NCBI RefSeq assembly: GCF_031998825.1 | Contig: NZ_DAMACX010000001.1 | Coordinates: 46,665 to 110,664 of the forward strand | DNA: 64,000 nucleotides | Direction of reading: 5' to 3' | Origin: Pseudescherichia sp. | GTDB taxonomy: Bacteria; Pseudomonadota; Gammaproteobacteria; Enterobacterales; Enterobacteriaceae | Shown: in pieces, positions 1,211 to 27,630 of the stretch | How the letters are laid out: the number at the start of each line of letters is the position of its first letter | Position numbering within the stretch: the first letter of the stretch is position 1 | Program-made: the position numbers and the translations under genes | Notes under the pieces: model-generated | Databases searched by the model: none | Seen by the model: the letters and a program-made list of their open reading frames with translations, nothing else | What the model was told of the DNA's origin: nothing

Positions 1211-1571
1211 CGTAACTTACTCATTATTCTTACATTGACGACTAAGCTGCGGGCATAGTTAACGCCTTTCCGGGGGTGAACCGATGGCCTCGTGTCTGTT
1301 CACGTCGCCAACCTCACGGTTGTCGCACGCTTAAGAGGCGCAGAGTGTCGGCTGCCTGTATTTCATACGGAAAAACAGCGCAATTATCAGGGGAACTGCC
1401 TGGGTATTACTCTCCAGAGTCGATCCCTTTACCGGTAAGGACTGCAACCCGCAGCCCGCTAAGTGCCTGAAGGATCAATACGTCTTACGCCATTGCTGCG
1501 TGGATGATCGGACAAGCAAAATTGGTCATTCCGCAAATTTCCTTGTTTAACAAGATTCAAGCGGAAACAGC
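1211..1571 (-). promoter_or_regulatory. rne long 5' untranslated leader (autoregulatory) and promoter region
   Basis: About 570 nt non-coding gap between rne ATG (1210) and divergent rluC. E. coli rne is known to carry a ~360-nt structured leader that mediates RNase E autoregulation. Extent is inferred from that knowledge, not mapped. Confidence 0.5.
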
Positions 1572-17185: not shown

Positions 17186-17419
17186 CACAGCAGGTGGGGG
17201 CAACCCGCCTTTTCAGAGCGGGTGTGGTTGAGATGAGATAACCTGGAATTACGTGTACATCACTCAGGCCCTTATTGCGGGGCCTGCTTGAGTAACAGTT
17301 GCGCGACCTGTCGAGCATCGTCAGCGGCTGATCTATTTCCAGTTGCTGGGTCAGCGTGAACATAGCCAGAATGCGCTCCTGCGGGGTATCCGCCTTATTA
17401 CGTTCTGCCCGTAAGATAA

Positions 17420-18496
17420 CTACTCATTCCCAGGGACACCAGGACCAATCAATGTAGCCCTTACCTGAGGAAGACTCTGCGGATAATTTTGTTGAATAAA
17501 CTCAATCATTTTTTCCCGCACGTGACAGCGTAAATCGAAGGCCATAGGTGAATTTTGCGCCGTCATTAACAATCTGATTGTCATGCTCTTTTCAGTCGTA
17601 TCGGTAACCTGGAGGACCTGCGTTTGTTGATCCCAGAGTTTTGTTTCACTGAGCACCTTTTCAAAGTGTTTTCGAAGAGGCTCTAAGGGCATCGAATAAT
17701 CCAGATAAAGAAAAACAGAGCCTAAAATTTGTGCATTGTTACGCGTCCAGTTTTGAAATGGATTTTCTGTAAAGTAGGTAATCGGTAAGACCAGTCGGCG
17801 CAGATCCCAGAGACGCACTACAACATACGTCAGGTTTATCTCTTCAATCCAACCCCACTCTTTTTCAACCACCACAGCATCATCGATTTTTATGGGTTGC
17901 GTAAACGCTATCTGAATTCCGGCAAACAAATTGACAAGCGATTTCTGTAGGGCAAAACCAATTATTATTCCGGCAACCCCTGCACCGGCCAGGATGGTCG
18001 TGCCAAATTTTCTAACGCCAGGGAAGCTAAGTAGAATCAGTGAAAGACAGAACGTCACAAGCACAACAATAGCGACTTTCTTAACATACATTATCTGAGT
18101 GCGAATTTTGCGGGCACGAAGATTATTCGATATATTAATATCATAACGTATGAAAAGCATATCCTGTGCAACATTAATCAATCGAATCAGCACAGAGCAA
18201 AATGACAATATAATAAATATATTGATTGCAGTTATAATAAATAGAAAGGATTCAGGTTGAATGTGGACATAATTAACCCCTATGCGTATTAACAGCAGAG
18301 GAATGAAAAGAAACATTGATCCACGAAGGTGTTTCTCCAGTGATTTGAATAGCTTTCTGTCGCGACTCTGCCAGTAGCGGATGAATCGTAGAAGTATAAA
18401 TCTCGCGAGAAAACCTACCGCGAGCGAGAGAGTCACGACCAATACCGCAGGCACCCATGTCGGCGCGACAGATAACTCACCAAATAAAAAAGACAT
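17420..18496 (-). CDS. Mechanosensitive ion channel family protein (MscS-like)
   Basis: 358 aa with several N-terminal TM segments, then ...GVAGIIIGFALQKSLVNLFAGIQIAFTQPIKIDDAVVVEKEWGWIEEINLTYVVVRLWDLRRLVLP..., the MscS pore helix/beta-domain signature. Visibly AT-rich. Confidence 0.8.
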   Translation of the reverse strand: MSFLFGELSVAPTWVPAVLVVTLSLAVGFLARFILLRFIRYWQSRDRKLFKSLEKHLRGSMFLFIPLLLIRIGVNYVHIQPESFLFIITAINIFIILSFCSVLIRLINVAQDMLFIRYDINISNNLRARKIRTQIMYVKKVAIVVLVTFCLSLILLSFPGVRKFGTTILAGAGVAGIIIGFALQKSLVNLFAGIQIAFTQPIKIDDAVVVEKEWGWIEEINLTYVVVRLWDLRRLVLPITYFTENPFQNWTRNNAQILGSVFLYLDYSMPLEPLRKHFEKVLSETKLWDQQTQVLQVTDTTEKSMTIRLLMTAQNSPMAFDLRCHVREKMIEFIQQNYPQSLPQVRATLIGPGVPGNE

Positions 18497-18916
18497 TGTT
18501 TCCCCTTATATCCTGCCAACAACCCTATATTATTTGTTCGGTAAAAATCTTTCATCTTACTCTTGAAGCTAATCACTATATTAGCCTGCTTTACGCGCAT
18601 TTTTAGAAGAAAAGGATGAAAATCTTGCCTGTAAAACTTAACGAGGATGTGTAACGTGCTGAGTAGTAAAGGAGCCTTTATTTTGCGACAGCGAGGCGTT
18701 ATGCGTGGCGCGCCGCAACATAGAGAGAATGGACGCAGTAGAATGGCCGTGGCGCTTGAGGCTTTTTGCCTCATAACGTTGAGGTGGTAAAGATGTGGTG
18801 AGGCAGAAAGAAGAAAGCCCCGAAGGTCATTTTTCAATTAACCAACGAGGCCTACTCTATGCCTGGACAACATCAGAGTAGCCGTTTACCCGCCGCAAGG
18901 CGGAGAAGAAGGCTAT

Positions 18917-20430
18917 TGTTAACGCCAGGCTGTAATATCCCCTTTAAACCATCCTAAAATGTCCCCGTCGATTTTTCGGGGATATTTTTCATGCGCAAAG
19001 AGACAGTTACAATGAGCTATAAGGAACTCGACAGGCTTCAGATTATTCAGGGCTCTGTGAACAGACATATTACTCAGGAGCAGGCAGCATTGCGTATGGG
19101 TATATCTGTTCGTCAGGTTAAAAGACTGGTGAACCGGTACCGAAATGAAGGACCTGCCGGTCTGGTTTCTCGCCGTCGCGGGAAGCGACCCAATAATGCA
19201 TTTACTCCTGAATTCAAAGCGGCTGTTATATCTCTCCTGAAAGAACGTTACTCAGATTTCGGTCCCACTCTTGCCGGTGAGAAACTGCGCGAGGTTCACG
19301 GCTTATCTCTATCAACTGAAACACTCAGAAAGTGGATGGTGGAGGAAGGGTTGTGGCGGGAACGTCGGCGTAAAATTGCCCGAATCTACCAGCGCCGCAT
19401 GCGTCGTCCTTCGTACGGCGAACTGATCCAGATTGATGGGTCTCCTCATGACTGGTTTGAGGCACGAGGTCCGCGATGTACCCTAATTGTCTTTATTGAT
19501 GATGCCACCAGTGCCCTGATGGCGCTGCGCTTCGCCCCGCGGAAACGACCCGTGCTTATATGGAGACGCTCCGGGGATACCTCACAGATCATGGGGTACC
19601 CCTGGCTCTCTATTCGGATCGGCACAGTATATTTCGCGTAAATAACCCGGAGCGCGAAGGGGAGCTGACCCAGTTTACCCGGGCGATTAAGATCCTGCGT
19701 ATAGAGCCCATTCATGCCAACACGCCTCAGGCAAAAGGTCGCGTTGAGCGGGCAAACCAGACGCTCCAGGACCGGCTGGTAAAAGAACTGCGCCTTCAGG
19801 GGATCAGCGATATCGAAACGGCAAACGCATGGTTGCCGGAGTTTATTGAAGCGTATAATAACCGCTTTGCCACCGCACCCCGTGACTCTGCTAATGCCCA
19901 TCTCGATGTACACCATTCGGAAGAAGAGCTGAACCATATCTTCAGCTATCAGGCGAAACGAGTTCTCTCAAAAAACCTCACCTTTCAGTACAAAACCAGT
20001 GCGTTCCAGATACGCAGTGAAGGGCGCGGTTACCGGCTCCGTAATTCAGTTGTTACCGTGTGTGAGAGTTTTGAAGGAGAGATTGCTGTTCTGTATGAGG
20101 GCAGGGCACTGGGCTGGGAAAAATATGTCGACGGACCTGAACCCATACCTCTTGACGACGAAAAAAGCGTCCACGAGCGGGTGGACAGGGCCCGGGTAAA
20201 TCTGCGCTCAAAATACTATGTCAAACCTAAAGCAGATCATCCCTGGCATACCCGCAGAACGCAAAGTCATGAACAGGCAAAGCCGCCACGATTACCTGCA
20301 AGGAAATCGGATATGGATAAACCGGACTGAAACTAAACGCACAGGGTTGAATGCATACAAGGTCAAAGCGTAGATAACTGTGCTGTGTTTCTGACGTTTT
20401 TGTTTGGGTGGTAGCCACTATTTTAACGGT
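18917..20430 (+). mobile_element. Degraded ISNCY (IS1202-group)-like insertion sequence; ends not defined
   Basis: Contains the frameshifted transposase below. I could not identify terminal inverted repeats, so the boundaries are approximate guesses. Confidence 0.35.
18991..20330 (+). pseudogene. ISNCY-family (IS1202-group) transposase, split by a 1-nt frameshift
   Basis: ORF 18991..19641 (HTH ...QEQAALRMGISVRQVKRLVNRY...IQIDGSPHDWFE...LIVFIDDATSALMALRFAP) continues in another frame as ...AETTRAYMETLRGYLTDHGVPLALYSDRHSIF...QAKGRVERANQTLQDRL (DDE integrase core; ORF 19560..20330). The two frames join at ccccGcggaaacg (about 19539), consistent with loss of one base. Confidence 0.8.
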
Positions 20431-20496
20431 AGCGCGTCAGAAGAGCACTCAGCTGGTTATAGCAGTAGGTTTCTCGCAAGGCAGGGTAGAAGCGTA

Positions 20497-21798
20497 TCAC
20501 TGAACTGAGATGTGATGAATTCGGAATGCATCGTTAGGTGATGTTGTGAAGACAATCACCTGACGATATTTCAGACTACCGAGTCTTAACTGCTGTTCCA
20601 TCATATCGTAGTAGTGGTACATCTTTTTACCTGTATCGAGCTCAACAATATACAAGCCAAGTATAGATTGACCAATAACTGGGGTAAATGCAATTTTCAG
20701 CACCTGAAATTTTGCTGCAAAATTGAGTAGATAAGGTGATGGGAAGTTCGGACGAATCACCCCATCACTGAGGGATAAGTGACCTTTGAGGACGACATCT
20801 CCAACGACATAATTCCCTACATCTACCTCATGGAATAGAATGCGGGCACGCGAAGAGGAGCTTAAGTGCCTGACCGTTAAAATTTGCTCGGCTCTCCTCT
20901 CTGGAGTTAGTAGCTGACTCATAGCCAAATCAACGCTTTCCTTTAAAATTCCCAACTTATATGTCGCTAATGTGTGTTGATCATAACTGAACTTATTTAT
21001 GCTAGGTGCCTTAGGGTAGAGAGTTTGCCGATCAAAGCCCCGTTGATTGTATTGTAAAGTATCGAAGTGCTCACCAATTGACCCAATATAACGAGCATTC
21101 ACCGTCATAGTATTCAACCGGGCAACTCCCAAATAAAGTGATGCTAAATTCTTAGCTCGATCTTGCGAAGTGGGGAGTGGACCAAAGCCTAGTGAACTAT
21201 AGAACCTCCAGATGGCTTTTTTGTCGCGAAATCGGTAGTCATTTCGTTTAACAATAGATAGATAAGGCTCTAATACCATTTTACGGTCGAGCCAGTTATT
21301 TCTTTTTAGAGCAAAACCCCAATTGAAACCCGCATGTATAAGCCTCTGTTCGTTATTTTTTTGGTATTCAAGTGAAGTGTGGTACTCAGGACCACAGCAG
21401 GTCACCATGCCGACTTGATTGTTACTCAGATAAGTTCGAACCAGAGCATTGAGAAGTTGAAAATAATGAGGCTGGACGACTAAATCATCCTCAAAGAAAA
21501 AGGCGTATTCTGCCTGGAGTTCTTCAAATACAAATCGCTCAGCACGGTCATAATTTAGAGCGATACCAATATTTTCCCGATTAGAGTGTACCACTCCCAA
21601 AGGAAAATACGATTGAAAGAGTTGGACGCACTGATCAGTTAATGCAATTTCATCTTGCTCTAGTCTCGGCCCGTCCTGAAACAAATGATATGTAAATTGG
21701 TGATGTTCAACAAGATCTTGCTGACTTAGGCTATCTAATACTGTTTGTAGATATTGTGGGCGATTATAAGACAAAATCACAACAGGCACTTCATTCAT
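20497..21798 (-). CDS. GT-A fold glycosyltransferase (EDD motif) with unassigned C-terminal domain
   Basis: ORF 20497..21801 with ATG at 21798. N-terminus VPVVILSYNRPQYLQTVLDSL...AFFFEDDLVVQPHYFQLL resembles GT2/GT13 (GnT-I-like EDD) nucleotide-sugar transferases. The last ~200 aa have no motif I recognise. Start overlaps the upstream stop (ATGAATGA). Confidence 0.7.
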   Translation of the reverse strand: MNEVPVVILSYNRPQYLQTVLDSLSQQDLVEHHQFTYHLFQDGPRLEQDEIALTDQCVQLFQSYFPLGVVHSNRENIGIALNYDRAERFVFEELQAEYAFFFEDDLVVQPHYFQLLNALVRTYLSNNQVGMVTCCGPEYHTSLEYQKNNEQRLIHAGFNWGFALKRNNWLDRKMVLEPYLSIVKRNDYRFRDKKAIWRFYSSLGFGPLPTSQDRAKNLASLYLGVARLNTMTVNARYIGSIGEHFDTLQYNQRGFDRQTLYPKAPSINKFSYDQHTLATYKLGILKESVDLAMSQLLTPERRAEQILTVRHLSSSSRARILFHEVDVGNYVVGDVVLKGHLSLSDGVIRPNFPSPYLLNFAAKFQVLKIAFTPVIGQSILGLYIVELDTGKKMYHYYDMMEQQLRLGSLKYRQVIVFTTSPNDAFRIHHISVQ

Positions 21799-22393
21799 CA
21801 ATCAGCACCTTGTGTAGGACTCTGGTTTGATTGAGTGTATTGTGGAACGCCAAGCGACCATGCAGAGAAGAGTGATTATCCACTATTAATCCATCACCAG
21901 CCTCAAGCTTGATTTTGAGTACATTTTTCTTGAGTTCAGCTACAAATGCTAACCAAGCATCTAGAAAATATTGAGAACGCACCTTCTCAATACTGCGGTA
22001 ATTGTGAGGGACACGAATAATATCGTTAGAGTAAATTTGATAGGTACATCGATTACCAACTTTTTCATGGGCTACGCTTTCCTTATTTAAAACCTCGAGG
22101 ATATGTGGTGACACACATCTACTCACATTGCCAATCAGTAAAGACTCTCCTCCAACAGGGGCCGGACTCTCACAAAATAATAAGAGATAGCGTGGAGGTA
22201 CAGGGCTCCAGAAAATATCAGTATGAGGTGGTACCAGGATGTTTGAATGCTCTACTGTCCCTGCTCCCTGAAACTTTATAGTTTTGGTAGAAAAAATCTT
22301 ATGGTGAGGTAAGTACGACCTAAGTGTCGAAATATTGCCCACATCTTTCAAATGCACCCAGCCCTCTACGGCTAACCGTTCCGATATATTCAC
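21791..22393 (-). CDS. TauD/TfdA-like Fe(II)/2-oxoglutarate dioxygenase (short form)
   Basis: 200 aa, GTG start in a GTGA overlap with the upstream stop. Has ...NILVPPHTDIFWSPVPPRYLLLFC...GGESLL...IVDNHSSLHGRLAF (HxD...H facial triad plus Arg pattern of the TauD family). Confidence 0.7.
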   Translation of the reverse strand: MNISERLAVEGWVHLKDVGNISTLRSYLPHHKIFSTKTIKFQGAGTVEHSNILVPPHTDIFWSPVPPRYLLLFCESPAPVGGESLLIGNVSRCVSPHILEVLNKESVAHEKVGNRCTYQIYSNDIIRVPHNYRSIEKVRSQYFLDAWLAFVAELKKNVLKIKLEAGDGLIVDNHSSLHGRLAFHNTLNQTRVLHKVLIDE

Positions 22394-23691
22394 TTAGAAG
22401 CCTTAGTTGTATGAATGCGATATAAATATCTTGGGCTATCTTCAGGAATATTATCTCGCCCATGCAACATTCGTTTGTTATCAACGAATAGCGCCTCGCC
22501 AGGCTTTAGTCTTAATATAACCTGTTCAGCATGAGAAATTGACGATTCAAGTGCCTGAAGTGCAACTATTTGTGTTTCACTATAATTATCAAGTAACAAC
22601 CAACGTGTATAGTAGATCTCATCTGACGTTGCACCTGGTCTTAAAATAGGATAAATATCTGTTTTAAAACGCTTATAAAGTGGAAAGCCAATGTGCGTTT
22701 TACGGAGTATCTCGCGGGTACTTTCGGGAAGGGATTCAATTAGTGGCTTACAATCAATCAGAACACTGCTACCTACATGCGGATCTTGTCTAATGCAATA
22801 CCAAGCTACGGTGTTAACCAGTGGTGAATCTGTATGAGGGGACAAGGATTCTGGCTTGTTAAACTTCAGTTTCGACTCATTATTTAATTTAATATCAGAT
22901 ATGGTTTTTACACTACCAAGATGCTCGTTAATATCTACATATTGCTCAAAGCTTAACTCCTGCTTAATGTGGCAATAACCATGTTGTTGCAACTCGCCTT
23001 CAACATAAGTAGCGAGTTGATCCACACTCTTCATCTTTATAGATTGTGGTTTCGGCTCATTTACAGCTAGCATTTTTATTATCTCGATAACTTGCTCTTT
23101 TGATTTTCCTTCACTGAACACCAAGCGAGCAGGTAGCGAATACAATAAAATCGTTTCTGTAATTTCAAATCGCTTAGAGTAGGAGTTAAAAAAAGCTTGG
23201 CTATTCTCTAACAGAGCTTTACTTGTAACTTGATTCCGTTCGTAAGATGGCGTTGGGACATGGTGAATATAACGTCCATAGTTATCATAGCACCAGCTTT
23301 GATACTCATAACTAAAAGTTAAAAACTGGTGCCAGAATTCATCGATGATGCCCGACATCATAGCACCATGGCCAGTTTCAACCCAACGTTCAAATTCTTC
23401 AAATAGGTAGTATGGATTATCCTCTATAAGTTTCAGAATCGTAGGGTGAGTCGTCTTTCGAAGGACTTTTAACGTACGTTCACACACCTCCCGAATCCGA
23501 TAAGACTTAACGTAGTGTTCAGGTTTATCAGCATACTTTAGAAAGAAATTGTCCGCTTTAATGAATGGATGTATTTCTTTGGTGAGATCGCTGTATTGTT
23601 CAGGCAGATAACCAGGCAGGTAATCCGATAGTTTTTTTGGAAGATTTCCCTTTGATTGATAGACTGCGAAGCTTAATTGTTTCAAAATCAT
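22390..23691 (-). CDS. Fusion protein: N-terminal GRDP/DUF1399-like domain + C-terminal TauD-like Fe(II)/2OG dioxygenase
   Basis: ORF track gives 22390..23805 from a TTG. I prefer ATG 23691 (MILKQLSFAVYQ...) because AGGGA lies 6 nt upstream and the TTG extension overlaps the peptide ORF. C-terminus has ...SLSPHTDSPLVNTVAWYCI...FVDNKRMLHGRDNI. N-domain has IDEFWHQFLTFSYEYQSWCYDNYGRYIHHVP. Confidence 0.65.
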   Translation of the reverse strand: MILKQLSFAVYQSKGNLPKKLSDYLPGYLPEQYSDLTKEIHPFIKADNFFLKYADKPEHYVKSYRIREVCERTLKVLRKTTHPTILKLIEDNPYYLFEEFERWVETGHGAMMSGIIDEFWHQFLTFSYEYQSWCYDNYGRYIHHVPTPSYERNQVTSKALLENSQAFFNSYSKRFEITETILLYSLPARLVFSEGKSKEQVIEIIKMLAVNEPKPQSIKMKSVDQLATYVEGELQQHGYCHIKQELSFEQYVDINEHLGSVKTISDIKLNNESKLKFNKPESLSPHTDSPLVNTVAWYCIRQDPHVGSSVLIDCKPLIESLPESTREILRKTHIGFPLYKRFKTDIYPILRPGATSDEIYYTRWLLLDNYSETQIVALQALESSISHAEQVILRLKPGEALFVDNKRMLHGRDNIPEDSPRYLYRIHTTKASK

Positions 23692-23734
23692 GGCATATCC
23701 CTGATTATTGCCTGGAGTAGGTCGCTTGAGTGAG

Positions 23735-23875
23735 TTATCGATCCCAGCCGCAATCATTGCAGTTGCTGTGACACTGATTGCATTCACTGCTCTCCGTATT
23801 TTCAATCATTGCACTAGCAACTGAATCCAAGTCAATGTTATGAGCTTGCTTGATTTCTTCAACTGTGTTTTCCAT
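23735..23875 (-). CDS. Unannotated 46-aa Cys-rich peptide (candidate RiPP precursor)
   Basis: Reverse complement reads ATGGAAAACACAGTTGAAGAAATCAAG...TGCGGCTGGGATCGATAA = MENTVEEIKQAHNIDLDSVASAMIENTESSECNQCHSNCNDCGWDR. AAGG lies 9 nt upstream of the ATG. Same strand as, and 43 nt upstream of, the dioxygenase gene. Below the ORF-track size cut-off. Confidence 0.5.
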   Translation of the reverse strand: MENTVEEIKQAHNIDLDSVASAMIENTESSECNQCHSNCNDCGWDR

Positions 23876-24491
23876 CTTTTAGTACCTTAAATTTTATTCA
23901 TATAGTGACGGAAAGAATCTATACAGCATTCTTTCACTTAGTACCTAAGAGAATCTTCGATTAAGCCTACATTCCCGTATAGACATAAAGCGCTCCCTCA
24001 GATTCAAAGACGGGCTGATTTTAAATATATACCCTTTTGTTAGATTATAATATTTTGTTCTCAGATTCAACCAGCAAACTAATGGCGAATTTACGGTTTT
24101 CTGGAAGACCGGTCTTGAACGAGATGGTGAGCTGAAAGTCGATTTGGGGAGCTGTACGATACGCTTCCTGCACAACATAGGCGGTAATGGACATCAGTTC
24201 GGGTCAGTAAAAGTGCCATCAAAAAAGCGCATGCAATGATGAACATCTTTGGTAATCACGGAAAGCAAGAAGTCTTAATACTTGCATATCTCTAACAGCA
24301 AACGTATGCACTTGATGACTACGCAGGTCATCGCCTTTAATGAAATATCTTTGCTCCAAAATTCCGTTCTAACCGCGAGCAGCATATCTGGCATGGGCCA
24401 TCGGGGAACAGGTCAGCGGAAACGGCTGAAATTATCCCGCATTACGCTGGCACCAGCTTAGGGCTGGCGACCAGCTTGAAGGGAGCTTCAG

Positions 24492-25481
24492 CTATTGGTT
24501 TCTGAAGAAAGCGGTCCTTGAAAGGGTCATTTGCGTCTGGCAGTCGACCATTTTCTTGACTTCAGCATCTGTTCCCTGCATTGAAACTTTGCCGCACATG
24601 GCATCCTTAGTTTTGATCCACTGGCGCTGAGAAGGTAGTAACTCTTTTTTCTTCGCCGGCGTTAACGTGCTCCAGGTGGTATTCAAATCAGAGTCGGCAT
24701 TCGCAAATGCCATTCGGGACTGATCAAGGCTGCCAGCTTTTTGTTGCTGAGGCTGCTGGTAGGATTGTTGTGGAATGGTTTGCTGAACCTGCTGCTCTGC
24801 CTTTTCTTGCGCCTGAAGCTGTGTCTGCCTCTCAATTTGCTGATCACGCTCATACTTCGCCTGTTGCTGCGCCCTGAGTTGTGCCTGTTGTTCCGCTTCA
24901 ATTTGAATCTGCTGGGCATCCTTAGCCTGCTGGATTTTCTGCTGCTCAACGATCGGGTTGATGATGGAAAGCGATGTCAGTGCAGCGGCACCCACTGATA
25001 TCGGATTATCAGAAGAGGCTTTTACAAAAACGATTTTTTGATCGTCGGTCGCCTGCGCGGTGTAGGAGATGCGTTTTGAAAAGGCGTTTGCGTTGTTATC
25101 CAATGACAGGCTTTCCATTTGCTTGTCGAGATTACGGTTAAAGTTCTTTCTGTAAGCATCAGAAAGCTGGGTGTAGTCGTTGGCAGGTAAGGTCATCGTC
25201 ACGGTCCCTTCACAGGTTTTCATTGTGCTGCCCGTGTCACTTGAGGTTGTGGAAATTTCAGAGATGACCAGTTTGATCTTGTCTAAAGCGCTTCGTTTGG
25301 TCTGATTAGTGACGTCAGGGTATTTGTCGACCTGTTCAGAGAGTCCTTCATAAGCAGATTTTTTTAATAAATCCATGAGAGCTGACTGGGTCATTTCAGA
25401 GGAACAACCGATCACGTCTTTTTTGTTATCACAGCCTGTAATGGCAACGGCGAGTAAGAGTGCTGAGTATTTTAATCTCAT
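24492..25481 (-). CDS. Lipoprotein with Gln-rich coiled-coil linker and C-terminal DUF1311 (LprI-like) domain
   Basis: MRLKYSALLLAVAITGC-D lipobox with Asp at +2. Central QQ(A/E/K)-rich low-complexity stretch. C-terminus ...LPSQRQWIKTKDAMCGKVSMQG...VDCQTQMTLSRTAFF resembles DUF1311. Confidence 0.7.
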   Translation of the reverse strand: MRLKYSALLLAVAITGCDNKKDVIGCSSEMTQSALMDLLKKSAYEGLSEQVDKYPDVTNQTKRSALDKIKLVISEISTTSSDTGSTMKTCEGTVTMTLPANDYTQLSDAYRKNFNRNLDKQMESLSLDNNANAFSKRISYTAQATDDQKIVFVKASSDNPISVGAAALTSLSIINPIVEQQKIQQAKDAQQIQIEAEQQAQLRAQQQAKYERDQQIERQTQLQAQEKAEQQVQQTIPQQSYQQPQQQKAGSLDQSRMAFANADSDLNTTWSTLTPAKKKELLPSQRQWIKTKDAMCGKVSMQGTDAEVKKMVDCQTQMTLSRTAFFRNQ

Positions 25482-26142
25482 GAGTTCCCTTTAGAGTAAG
25501 GATTGGCTTTTGAGAGGCGGCCTGTAATCAGTCCGGAGGGCTAAAGTAAACAGCACTGACACTGAACGCATCACAAGCAAGGACCAAGGTGATATCGGCA
25601 AAAGCTGTGAAATCTTTAATTCAGCTGATGAGAAAGGTATGCGCAGGGTACTGTAACAATGATCCCGAAGCCGGAAAACTGCAAGGCAGGTTCTCGCTGC
25701 TGAACTTAATAAAGGTCAGGGTAAAGCCAGCGCAGGCGCACCGTTTATGACCTTTCATCTGTGCTAATCCACACAGCCGTTCAGATCGGTGGTTTCTTCG
25801 CTGGTGTATTTGTTATGGCGAGTCTCATTTGACCTAATCCTACTTATCACCTTTATTAAAAAGGGGGGATTACTCCACCTCCGCGGAACACGATAAGAAT
25901 TTCATTGAAAGTTGTTCTTGGCTCATATGACCTGCTCCCTTCAAAGCAATGCAGACCGAGCTTAGAAGCTTCCGTTTTTGGCACTAAGTGGACATTCATT
26001 GCTTTAAATCTGACTGTAGCTACTTAATCCATCCTTCCTGTTTTAGATAGTGCTGCTTTGATTTTGGTGGCATCCACCGCGGCGCAATCCTGCGGCAGGA
26101 TGGAATCGAAGCGGGCGCATAAGGCGTTAACCAGGTGTGCGT

Positions 26143-26165
26143 GGCGAGGCGAGGCGAGGCGAGGC
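26143..26165. repeat. Pentanucleotide tandem repeat (GGCGA)x4 + GGC
   Basis: gtGGCGAGGCGAGGCGAGGCGAGGCc read directly. Lies inside a non-coding/degenerate stretch. Confidence 0.85.
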
Positions 26166-26500
26166 CTACTTGCCGATCACCACTAAGCGCATCGGCAGTT
26201 CCGGGCGTTTGATCACGGCGTCGTGATACGCGGGCATGATGAATGAGCAGATAAGACTCAGACTTATCTGCTAAAAATATCAGCTTCTGATGGTTGTTAA
26301 GCTCCTGCCCGGATTCAGGAACCTTGCTGACTTATTTATCTCACTGGTTTACCTCTGTACGAAACCCGCTGCAAGGCGCAGACAGCTCACCAGCTATATG
26401 ACTGGTTCCGTGATGAGATAGGCATTGAGCTACGCGCCGAGCATGGCGATTACCAGCTACAGAGCTGCAAAATTCGGCCTGCGATTGTAAAAGAAGACTG

Positions 26501-26521
26501 ACCGCCTCCGGGCGGTTTTTG
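26501..26521 (+). terminator. Intrinsic terminator after a gene remnant
   Basis: accgcc-tccg-ggcggt followed by ttttt. It follows an orphan reading-frame tail ending ...HQLYDWFRDEIGIELRAEHGDYQLQSCKIRPAIVKED* (no start codon). Confidence 0.6.
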
Positions 26522-26653
26522 CTTCCTTTTACATTGAGTAGCCTAAGCGTTCTCATCTGTATCACCAAAATTAGTAGGATTTTCCTTAGGTTGTTGCTTT
26601 GCTGTGTTACATCTTGTAATGATTGTTGCGCCTTAAATAACAAGCACATAACC

Positions 26654-27103
26654 ATGAAAACCTTAAAAGGGATTAGCAGCTTATTACTGCTGTTATCTGC
26701 ACACAGCAACGCAGCCTGGCAAGAGCGCGAGCTCAACACCTGGTATGAGAAAGACAAAGTTTTATACGACATCACGCAAACTGTCGATGACAATCCTGTA
26801 ATGATAAGCATCGCTCAGGCTGACTATAAAACAGCTAATCTTGCTGTTTCGTATATGTCTAATGGAGGATGTTCAGACCATACCCAGTCGCTAAGAATTA
26901 ATAACACCATTGTGCCTGCTGCTTATAAGTGTGTACCGGTGGGGAAGAATAAAATTGAGCATTACATTGTCGATGACGCTGATAAGGTCAACGCCCTTGT
27001 AGGGCATCTGGAATCAGACTTTACGGCAGTGATTCAGGGAGACATCAAAGTCTGGGCGGCCAATATCAAGTCGCCGAAGTACGGAATGGCCCCGAAATTT
27101 TGA
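26654..27103 (+). CDS. Secreted hypothetical protein (signal peptide)
   Basis: ORF 26519..27103. ATG 26654 gives MKTLKGISSLLLLLSAHSNA-AWQERE..., a classic Sec signal. No family recognised. Confidence 0.6.
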   Translation: MKTLKGISSLLLLLSAHSNAAWQERELNTWYEKDKVLYDITQTVDDNPVMISIAQADYKTANLAVSYMSNGGCSDHTQSLRINNTIVPAAYKCVPVGKNKIEHYIVDDADKVNALVGHLESDFTAVIQGDIKVWAANIKSPKYGMAPKF

Positions 27104-27120
27104 CGGAACTGCTGAACGTA

Positions 27121-27142
27121 AACCGCCTACGGGCGGTTTTTT
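27121..27142 (+). terminator. Intrinsic terminator
   Basis: aaccgcc-tac-gggcggtt followed by tttt. The stem is nearly identical to the terminator at 26501. Confidence 0.7.
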
Positions 27143-27366
27143 ATTGGTAGCAAAACGAGAGGCGCTATGTCAGTAGAAGGCAGCTATAACCCGGGCAAGC
27201 TCCGCGAAGGTGGAACAAGCAGACCGATCGTAAATAGCAGGCATTACACAGAGGCATCCCCGGGGCACTTGATTATGAAAATTACGAGGCCCTATCATTT
27301 TTGAGGTATAGGAATAATCTCAGGCTGGTGATATTAAATAACCACAAAAAAAGTGGAGATCTGGTC

Positions 27367-27630
27367 TTGAAAATTTTAGGGTTAGATGAGCAAAGAACAC
27401 TTCGTGGGAGTGGAGTGTTGAAGTTTTTTGAGCTTGAGCGCGTTCCAAATAGTGACTGGGTTGAGATATTTGAAAGCCTGTTCACTCAGGAAAACGAGAA
27501 GACGTGGGTTGAAGGATATTGCCTAGTCACTAGTTGCCCCACGAGTGAGGTGCCAGCCCGCCTCAAGCTGATTGAGGAAAAATGCGTTTTGGCGAATGAG
27601 CTTTTAAAGAAACGACTTCCTTCTCTGTAG
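27367..27630 (+). CDS. Hypothetical small protein (start uncertain)
   Basis: ORF 27301..27630 has no ATG start. TTG 27367 is preceded by GGAG (8-nt spacer). Product ...KILGLDEQRTLRGSGVLKFFELERVPNSDWVEIFESLF... has no recognised family. Confidence 0.3.
   Translation: MKILGLDEQRTLRGSGVLKFFELERVPNSDWVEIFESLFTQENEKTWVEGYCLVTSCPTSEVPARLKLIEEKCVLANELLKKRLPSL

Follow-up and report, generated by a model that had tools for sequence, protein, structure and literature searches.

In a 64,000-nucleotide (nt) stretch of Pseudescherichia sp. DNA (contig NZ_DAMACX010000001.1; the whole stretch is called the window here), a 46-codon open reading frame (ORF) on the minus strand lies directly 5' of a gene for a two-domain dioxygenase. 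Comparison of homologous loci shows that the ORF is a real coding gene, on whose peptide product purifying selection acts strongly, and we consider it fairly probable that it encodes the substrate of a peptide-modifying system not described before, a precursor resembling those of RiPPs, peptides made by the ribosome and modified after translation. The ORF had been proposed in an earlier note on this DNA (the original prediction), together with an AAGG 9 nt upstream of its ATG; it was present exactly as described, its translation was checked, and the AAGG was located at 23888..23885. The features of the peptide gene are as follows.

23735..23875, minus strand: gene of the 46-amino-acid (aa) precursor peptide, ATG start, translation MENTVEEIKQAHNIDLDSVASAMIENTESSECNQCHSNCNDCGWDR
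23875..23786, minus strand: leader of the peptide, codons 1–30
23785..23738, minus strand: core of the peptide, codons 31–46, ECNQCHSNCNDCGWDR
23737..23735, minus strand: stop codon of the peptide gene
23885..23888, minus strand: AAGG resembling a Shine-Dalgarno sequence, 9 nt upstream of the ATG at 23875
23931..23952, minus strand: upstream block TCTCTTAGGTACTAAGTGAAA, nearly invariant in a five-locus alignment (A4)

Conservation of the peptide gene

A homologous ORF of 45–54 aa was found directly 5' of every relative of the dioxygenase that has upstream DNA (loci L003, L005–L012 and L016–L022), with a gap of −4 to +81 nt between the peptide and enzyme genes (43 nt in the window). ORFs of 45–46 aa occupied this position in Marinobacterium, Kluyvera, Vibrio parahaemolyticus and a number of contigs from metagenomes, including loci whose enzyme is only 42–47% identical to that of the window, and the hosts of the peptide loci ranged from 24 to 52% GC. 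This adjacency supports the functional tie to the dioxygenase genes that had been suggested for the ORF. A Shine-Dalgarno-like AAGG, AGGAG, GAGG or GGAG was seen 6–11 nt 5' of the peptide ATG in 10 of 11 homologous loci, the exception being L012.

At the codon level, the core was compared among 11 independent loci. The ORF is open in all of them, and the core is invariant at 14 of its 16 positions (ECNQCH[S/D]NCNDCG[W/Y]DR), the only variations being S37D, which is found in L003 and L007, and W44Y. Each degenerate core codon is represented by at least two synonymous codons, with Ser encoded by both AGY and TCA, and the core codons of two loci differ at up to 10 of the 16 positions with zero or one amino-acid change. 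None of the five alternative frames over the peptide gene, including the TTG extension of the dioxygenase ORF, is conserved among the loci. The synonymous variation of the core and the lack of conservation in the alternative frames led us to reject a spurious ORF. Two outcomes that had been named as possible refutations, absence of the ORF from orthologous loci and initiation of the dioxygenase at the TTG at 23805, were not borne out; the family alignment of the enzyme begins at MILK (ATG 23691) rather than at that TTG, and the frame overlapping the peptide is interrupted by stop codons in other loci. A 38-aa, Cys-rich ORF with a TTG start also runs antisense to the peptide gene (23708..23824, plus strand; …CSCCDTDCIHC…). 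It was rejected as a candidate gene; in other loci it contains stop codons and its Cys residues become Tyr, and because these Cys residues are not conserved the antisense ORF appears to be a by-product of sense-strand composition.

The peptide gene has been overlooked or overwritten by standard annotation. As the original prediction had pointed out, it is masked by a 471-aa dioxygenase ORF in another frame (22390..23805, TTG start in the mechanical ORF list), and the RefSeq entry from Pseudescherichia sp. (WP_312409827.1) is likewise too long, the dioxygenase being annotated at 465 aa and running across the peptide ORF. Gene callers place the dioxygenase at 455, 465 or 471 aa, in each case with an N-terminus over-extended across the peptide gene. 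Both the peptide and the dioxygenase have identical database entries from Pseudescherichia sp., and JGI labels the peptide a hypothetical protein. In a search of 5.8 billion proteins, the peptide family formed 7 clusters and the enzyme 14 clusters at 90% clustering, and the two always occurred together. Scans of genomes and metagenomes contributed only five further loci, and the family is therefore truly rare. Weak matches of the peptide to Pfam DUF7374 and NCBIfam PreA were discarded as family assignments, as both lie far under the cut-offs and reflect the Cys pattern only.

Leader and core of the peptide

In an alignment of 12 peptide sequences (A3), the N-terminal 30–38 residues are variable except for a short motif and the C-terminal 16 residues are invariant, in support of the layout proposed originally, a leader followed by a Cys-rich core. 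The C-x2-C-x3-C-x2-C spacing that had been read in the tail is correct. In four of the seven peptide clusters (P0018–P0021) the leaders are wholly different and lysine-rich while the tail is 100% identical to ECNQCHSNCNDCGWDR. The core stays invariant although leaders may be acidic or basic and enzyme identity drops to 33–37%. The conserved leader motif is [HY]-[NGDS]-[IV]-x-[LM], to which HNIDL of the window peptide belongs. As in known RiPP systems, a small precursor gene is co-oriented beside an enzyme gene, here in the window and 10 other loci, and the peptide is bipartite. The conservation of this 16-residue Cys/His/Asn/Asp core over so wide a range of host GC content points to a product whose role in the cell is precise and conserved, for example in redox chemistry or the binding of a metal.

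The core, which contains four Cys, one Ser and no Thr, opens with an invariant CXXCH motif (CNQCH, the canonical haem-c attachment motif; residues C32–H36, 23770..23784, minus strand). We considered and rejected a c-type cytochrome or haem peptide: although CXXCH is present and invariant, there is no Sec signal peptide. All 12 sequences begin with a helical segment that is acidic or basic and lacks hydrophobic character, and no signal peptide could be read in any of them, so that periplasmic haem attachment is not expected and the CXXCH motif may be coincidental.

The fused two-domain enzyme

The gene following the peptide encodes an enzyme of two domains.

22390..23691, minus strand: fused enzyme gene, 433 aa, true start ATG 23691
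23047..23691, minus strand: UCP032817-like/GRDP-like helical domain, residues ~1–215 (precomputed PF27765, alignment A1, hhalign)
22390..23028, minus strand: C-terminal TauD/TfdA-type Fe(II)/2-oxoglutarate (2OG) oxygenase domain (Pfam PF02668)

The C-terminal domain matched PF02668 with E = 4.9e-10 (40.2 bits against a cut-off of 27), and its HxD...H triad and 2OG-binding Arg are intact, H286, D288, H410 and R421 being invariant in the family alignment. A profile search of the PDB placed its sequence nearest to BBOX and TmpA; by structure, the Foldseek matches, with E of about 1e-10, were TauD, clavaminate synthase, AtsK and AsnO, and KDO1 was also among the nearest folds. The Pfam score, the triad, the Arg and the jelly-roll fold place this domain in the TauD/TfdA family. 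Hundreds of stand-alone, short TauD-like proteins of 200–250 aa (listed among P0027–P0169) also match this half of the enzyme, with E = 1e-27 to 1e-42, and several homologues of the fused enzyme have a GTG start.

The N-terminal domain was more difficult to place. It gave no match in the local Pfam-A copy even at E <= 10 and none among PDB sequences; PF27765 (UCP032817-like) is precomputed on all members of the enzyme family, whose invariant motif here is DEFWHQF-TFSYEY-SWC-DN--R-IHH-PT (alignment A1). Against 106 stand-alone members of the domain family, hhalign gave a probability of 91% and E = 9.5e-7 over the W-H...Y...C...H-H-x-P motif. These stand-alone relatives are named "glycine-rich domain-containing protein" by NCBI and UniRef, and one of them, P0277, scores above the cut-off of PF07173 (GRDP-like, formerly DUF1399). 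In an AF2 model of the whole fused enzyme, the motif region of the N-terminal domain was predicted with low confidence, and a fold search with it saw only the TauD half. The AlphaFold model of a stand-alone member was confident (predicted local distance difference test score 83, predicted template modelling score 0.77) and all-helical, and a fold search of this model against the PDB gave no significant match (best E = 3.3).

The minimal pair and the accessory genes

In the distant loci L018–L022, the peptide gene is followed at −4 to +2 nt by a gene for a PF27765 plus TauD enzyme of 431–445 aa; in L016 the enzyme gene stands at +15 nt from the peptide gene and the contig ends soon after it. 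These distant-locus enzymes are only 33–37% identical to that of the window. Because L018–L022 lack both the 200-aa TauD-like gene and the glycosyltransferase gene that follow in the window, the peptide and the fused enzyme are the minimal obligate pair, and the other two enzymes, the second oxygenase and the GT2 glycosyltransferase, serve as accessories in the gammaproteobacterial clade. Together with the pair, they form a compact cassette.

21791..22393, minus strand: accessory short TauD-like oxygenase, 200 aa (Pfam TauD, E = 2.5e-15)
20497..21801, minus strand: accessory GT2-family glycosyltransferase, 434 aa (Pfam Glycos_transf_2, 25.8 bits, cut-off 23.3)
20495..24100, minus strand: mobile four-gene cassette, 3.6 kb, ~40% GC with flanks of ~56% GC

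The four genes run head-to-tail on the minus strand and the start and stop codons of the three enzyme genes overlap; the GTG start of the 200-aa TauD-like gene overlaps the stop of the fused enzyme gene by 4 nt, and the GT2 gene overlaps the gene before it. HTD...LHGR is preserved in the orthologues of the short oxygenase in L012 and L013. Orthologues of the GT2 protein occur in L003, L008, L010 and L012, and in L013 it is truncated; the C-terminal half of the protein is uncharacterised by family, and the protein has no sequence match in the PDB.

By blastn, the cassette is 80–87% identical in DNA to loci of Kluyvera (L008), Marinobacterium (L003) and Vibrio (L010). This homology reaches precisely to the stop codon of GT2, and the flanking DNA is of unrelated sequence; in the window it includes ptsG, an OYE-type reductase and others, and across the cassette loci there are insertion sequence (IS) elements, an integrase or, on a probable plasmid, ParAB. 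The cassette is a horizontally mobile unit. Spread among Enterobacterales, Vibrio and marine bacteria and only 3.6 kb in size, it should be straightforward to express heterologously.

Recurrent linkage of the helical domain, TauD-type oxygenases and Cys-rich tails

Nearly all stand-alone UCP032817-like proteins have Cys-containing C-terminal tails. A tail of the form ...NPCxxTxCR ends about 95 of 120 of them; other tails are ANCKS repeats (Helicobacter), Gly/Cys-rich, or HACHAPSxCACR. Three to five tandem C-terminal A[YF]CMAAKP (or ANCKS) repeats are carried by P0278, P0280, P0281, P0284–P0289 and P0239, and these repeats resemble multi-core precursor peptides. In Beggiatoa alba (L024, 6001..12495) and in L016 (330..5849), a stand-alone UCP032817-like gene whose product ends in ...NxCxSTxCR is followed by a 283-aa TauD gene, and the operon continues with an S-adenosylmethionine (SAM) methyltransferase, a pentapeptide-repeat protein (Beggiatoa only) and a STAND/AAA ATPase of ~1200 aa. 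This separate, conserved operon looks like a sister system.

Three further clusters (P0026, P0052 and P0088; less than 50% identical to each other) combine a short TauD domain, a UCP032817-like domain and a tail C-W-[HN]-D-C-x-x-R-C-W-H-A-C in a single chain. Their domain order is the reverse of that in the window enzyme and the Cys segment is in cis (locus L025, 5001..6167). Because the stand-alone, single-chain and window arrangements all combine these modules, the helical domain, the TauD-like oxygenase and a short Cys-rich segment are repeatedly linked, and the window has the split arrangement, in which the Cys segment is a separate small gene with its own leader. Experiments on this three-way link could reveal what the GRDP/DUF1399 superfamily does. 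An origin of the leader from the last helix of the stand-alone UCP032817-like proteins was considered and rejected; the hhalign register was as expected, but the probability was 4%.

Proposed mechanism and alternative explanations

In the mechanism that we propose, the variable, helical leader of ~30 residues would dock the peptide on the adjacent fused enzyme via [HY]-[NGDS]-[IV]-x-[LM], whereupon the TauD-type Fe(II)/2OG domain would oxidise the core ECNQCHSNCNDCGWDR at one or more of its side chains. Beta-hydroxylation of Asn, Asp or His would be the favoured reaction because of the structural relatives of the enzyme; oxidation of Trp or Tyr is favoured as well. The UCP032817-like/GRDP-like domain might hold the Cys-rich segment or perform a second metal-dependent step, and in the window cassette the second TauD-like oxygenase and the GT2 protein could tailor the peptide further by extra hydroxylation and glycosylation. 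We infer that the peptide undergoes modification and at which residues, as well as what the helical domain does and what kind of product results. Since the core is fixed while leaders and enzymes diverge, the product is probably a metal-binding or redox-active peptide of fixed structure, cofactor-like in logic, rather than an arms-race bacteriocin; such a precise, conserved role would be rarer and more interesting than another bacteriocin. If the peptide is indeed the substrate, it would represent a candidate new class of ribosomal peptides, defined by a TauD oxygenase fused to a domain for which no relative of solved structure was found.

A more specific version of this proposal, which we regard as tentative and rather doubtful, is that the UCP032817-like/GRDP-like domain is a new peptide-processing metallo-domain that acts with short TauD-type oxygenases on Cys-containing C-terminal segments, whether these are in cis or encoded by small genes of their own, and that the core ECNQCHSNCNDCGWDR is converted into a redox cofactor or metallophore. 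The species derived from ECNQCHSNCNDCGWDR could then be cross-linked (Cys-Trp/Tyr or Cys-Asn/Asp), hydroxylated and glycosylated. If this were true, it would establish a new RiPP class and provide the first biochemical function for the bacterial and plant GRDP/DUF1399 superfamily.

Several observations weigh against the peptide being a modified precursor. Most RiPP families show the opposite pattern to a constant core behind a changing leader, no cleavage site could be recognised in the peptide, and no leader peptidase, exporter or immunity gene was found in the cassette or the minimal loci. The enzymes of the window type replace H96 with F, D99 with F and D106 with W at positions that are (near-)invariant in the stand-alone domain family, and because of these three replacements a catalytic role of the N-terminal domain is weakened here. 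The Cys tails fused in cis in P0026, P0052 and P0088 could equally well be metal or redox modules that stay part of the enzyme, and P0285, one of the proteins with repeat tails (locus L023), lies beside a ribosomal-protein operon with no TauD neighbour. In addition, the proposed chemistry of the peptide modification rests on inference throughout.

Some of these points lead to another interpretation, in which the peptide is an unmodified metal-binding or redox micro-protein that serves the oxygenase as a detachable subunit, a metallochaperone or an electron/redox partner, with Fe, Zn or Cu held by the four Cys and one His, or with a redox-active dithiol pair. The CxxCxxxCxxC plus His layout is like that of metal knuckles, the weak, sub-cut-off profile match to PreA covers its 4Fe-4S region, similar Cys tails occur in relatives in cis on the enzyme or the domain, the invariance of the core would suit a structural metal site, and the cassette and the minimal loci have no protease or exporter. 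However, the non-ligand Asn, Gln, Ser, Asp, Gly and Arg vary no more than the Cys and His do, and a simple knuckle needs less than this. The tails also differ radically between subfamilies, some of them being three to five tandem A[YF]CMAAKP units, which looks more like substrate cores than like one conserved cofactor site, and the glycosyltransferase and second oxygenase of the gammaproteobacterial cassette look like tailoring enzymes. An unmodified micro-protein is the main rival to the modified precursor, though an unlikely one. Another peptide class suggested by the cassette is a precursor of a glycocin-type, S- or O-glycosylated bacteriocin, with GT2 as the key maturase and the oxygenases as tailoring enzymes, as the operon is horizontally mobile and combines a Cys-rich core with a GT2-family glycosyltransferase. 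This is quite improbable, because the GT2 and second TauD genes are missing from L018–L022 despite an identical core, so that GT2 is not class-defining; no ABC-transporter/peptidase, thiol-disulfide oxidoreductase or immunity gene was found in the cassette, an invariant core is atypical for bacteriocins, and the helix-loop-helix with nested disulfides of glycocins is beyond the reach of the 11-residue Cys span.

The original prediction had noticed that the leader segment HNIDLDSV resembles the FNLD box of class I lanthipeptides such as nisin, and had stated that no lanthionine synthetase is present. The latter holds, as the cassette enzymes are TauD, TauD and GT2 only, and LanB, LanC, LanM and LanKC/LanL are absent from the cassette and all related loci. 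The former is a superficial likeness, even though the leader motif itself is conserved: the motif tolerates Y, G and V (YGVVL, YNILL) and co-varies with the UCP032817-like/TauD enzyme, which is another enzyme family, and the single Ser and lack of Thr leave little for four Cys to react with in a lanthipeptide core, so that the chance of a lanthipeptide-like precursor is negligible. A non-coding or regulatory ORF, either a chance ORF within a longer dioxygenase or a Cys-sensing attenuation leader or upstream ORF, could be suggested by the lengths of 455, 465 and 471 aa given by gene callers that extend the dioxygenase over it, and by a terminator-like hairpin 3' of the ORF in L012. The chance-ORF version is refuted by the enzyme alignment and the stop codons in the overlapping frame described above. 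Attenuation does not require purifying selection on the core at the amino-acid level, the variable spacer holds no conserved alternative hairpins and that of the window does not fold; taken together, a regulatory or non-coding ORF is very improbable. We favour the modified precursor over these readings.

Comparison with known systems

Invariant C-terminal cores that give rise to cofactors or metallophores are known from PqqA (pyrroloquinoline quinone), MftA (mycofactocin) and the precursors of methanobactin and bufferin, as well as from SCIFF. The window system is like these in that a short gene with a variable leader and a conserved C-terminal core lies directly 5' of the modifying enzyme, and like SCIFF in having a Cys-rich core within about 45 residues. 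It differs from the PqqA, MftA, SCIFF and MNIO systems in the partner, which is a UCP032817-like plus TauD fusion and not a radical-SAM or MNIO/DUF692 enzyme; neither a radical-SAM nor a DUF692 maturase was present in the cassette or the minimal loci, and no RiPP recognition element-like domain, peptidase or transporter was found with the peptide system. In the literature that was searched we found no prior description of the core sequence, nor of GRDP/UCP032817 proteins linked to TauD or RiPPs, and the system is a candidate new RiPP-like family, in which the logic is known and the enzyme and precursor have not been described before.

The nearest functional analogue in print is the SmaO/SmaX cascade, in which an Fe(II)/2OG Asp beta-hydroxylase and an atypical HD-domain Fe enzyme convert Asp to aminomalonate in RiPPs, and alongside which TauD-like partners are mentioned (PMC12186529). 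In both systems a 2OG oxygenase is paired, and sometimes fused, with a second helical, His-rich domain, and the peptide cores contain Asp; the window precursor differs in being Cys-rich and in lacking a DG/GD motif or double-glycine site. An HD-domain (SmaX-like) identity of the N-terminal domain was rejected, as there was no HD_4 or DUF6817 Pfam match and the model of the stand-alone relative showed no HD-fold match.

The GRDP-like/DUF1399 (PF07173) and UCP032817-like (PF27765) proteins share the domain found at the N-terminus of the window enzyme, which differs from them in that the domain is fused to an oxygenase and the Cys/Gly tail, which in these proteins is normally C-terminal, has a gene of its own. 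The literature on DUF1399/GRDP contained plant phenotypes only and no biochemistry. The amino-acid beta-hydroxylases of the AsnO/VioC/KDO1/SyrP type, members of the clavaminate-synthase/TauD clade, resemble the oxygenase domain in fold and facial triad, and the core is rich in their typical targets, Asn, Asp and His. However, their substrates are free or carrier-bound amino acids, whereas a ribosomal peptide is proposed here, and their sequence identity to the window enzyme is only about 15–20%.

Fused and split forms are also known among the burpitide (BURP-domain) cyclases, and large leaders among the NHLP/Nif11-type precursors. The burpitide cyclases are similar in that the same module set occurs with the core in cis, in some cases as tandem repeats, or as a separate small gene, but they are different from the window system in fold, metal chemistry and kingdom.

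Regulatory features and genomic setting

The upstream block TCTCTTAGGTACTAAGTGAAA contains the palindrome CTTAG-GTA-CTAAG at 23949..23937, ~60 nt 5' of the peptide ATG, and the palindrome is kept in the Kluyvera and Vibrio copies. The block is a candidate promoter or operator element with a putative function, and a scan for promoter consensus sequences upstream of the peptide gene gave nothing better than chance. The 9-mer AGGTACTAA recurs at the ribosome-binding site of the peptide (23879..23887, minus strand); it and the palindrome could act as a regulatory repeat or an operator. In L012, a strong hairpin of the terminator type (1380..1412), with a 13-bp stem and a T-run (z = −4.3), separates the peptide gene from that of the enzyme, at a position as commonly found 3' of RiPP precursor genes. 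The 43-nt spacer of the window is unstructured and has no terminator-like hairpin.

Other origins and roles of the cassette were considered and rejected. The core pattern is absent from viral contigs, which argues against a phage origin, and the cassette is absent at the nucleotide level from PLSDB plasmids and complete E. coli genomes, which argues against a plasmid origin; the sole plasmid protein match was a distant TauD domain. No PADLOC model for anti-phage defence systems matched.

A patchy region of lower GC, ~17400..27600, surrounds the cassette. An IS-like element directly after the GT2 stop (18991..20330, plus strand) forms one edge of the low-GC islet. It contains two overlapping ORFs, of 216 aa (helix-turn-helix/IS481-type leucine zipper) and 256 aa (rve_3 integrase core), and the overlap suggests a transposase that is frameshifted or uses programmed frameshifting. 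Outside the conserved 3.6-kb cassette, the region also holds an MscS-type channel gene (17420..18496, minus strand) and a gene (24492..25481, minus strand) whose 329-aa product is an LprI-domain lipoprotein containing a coiled, Gln-rich segment.

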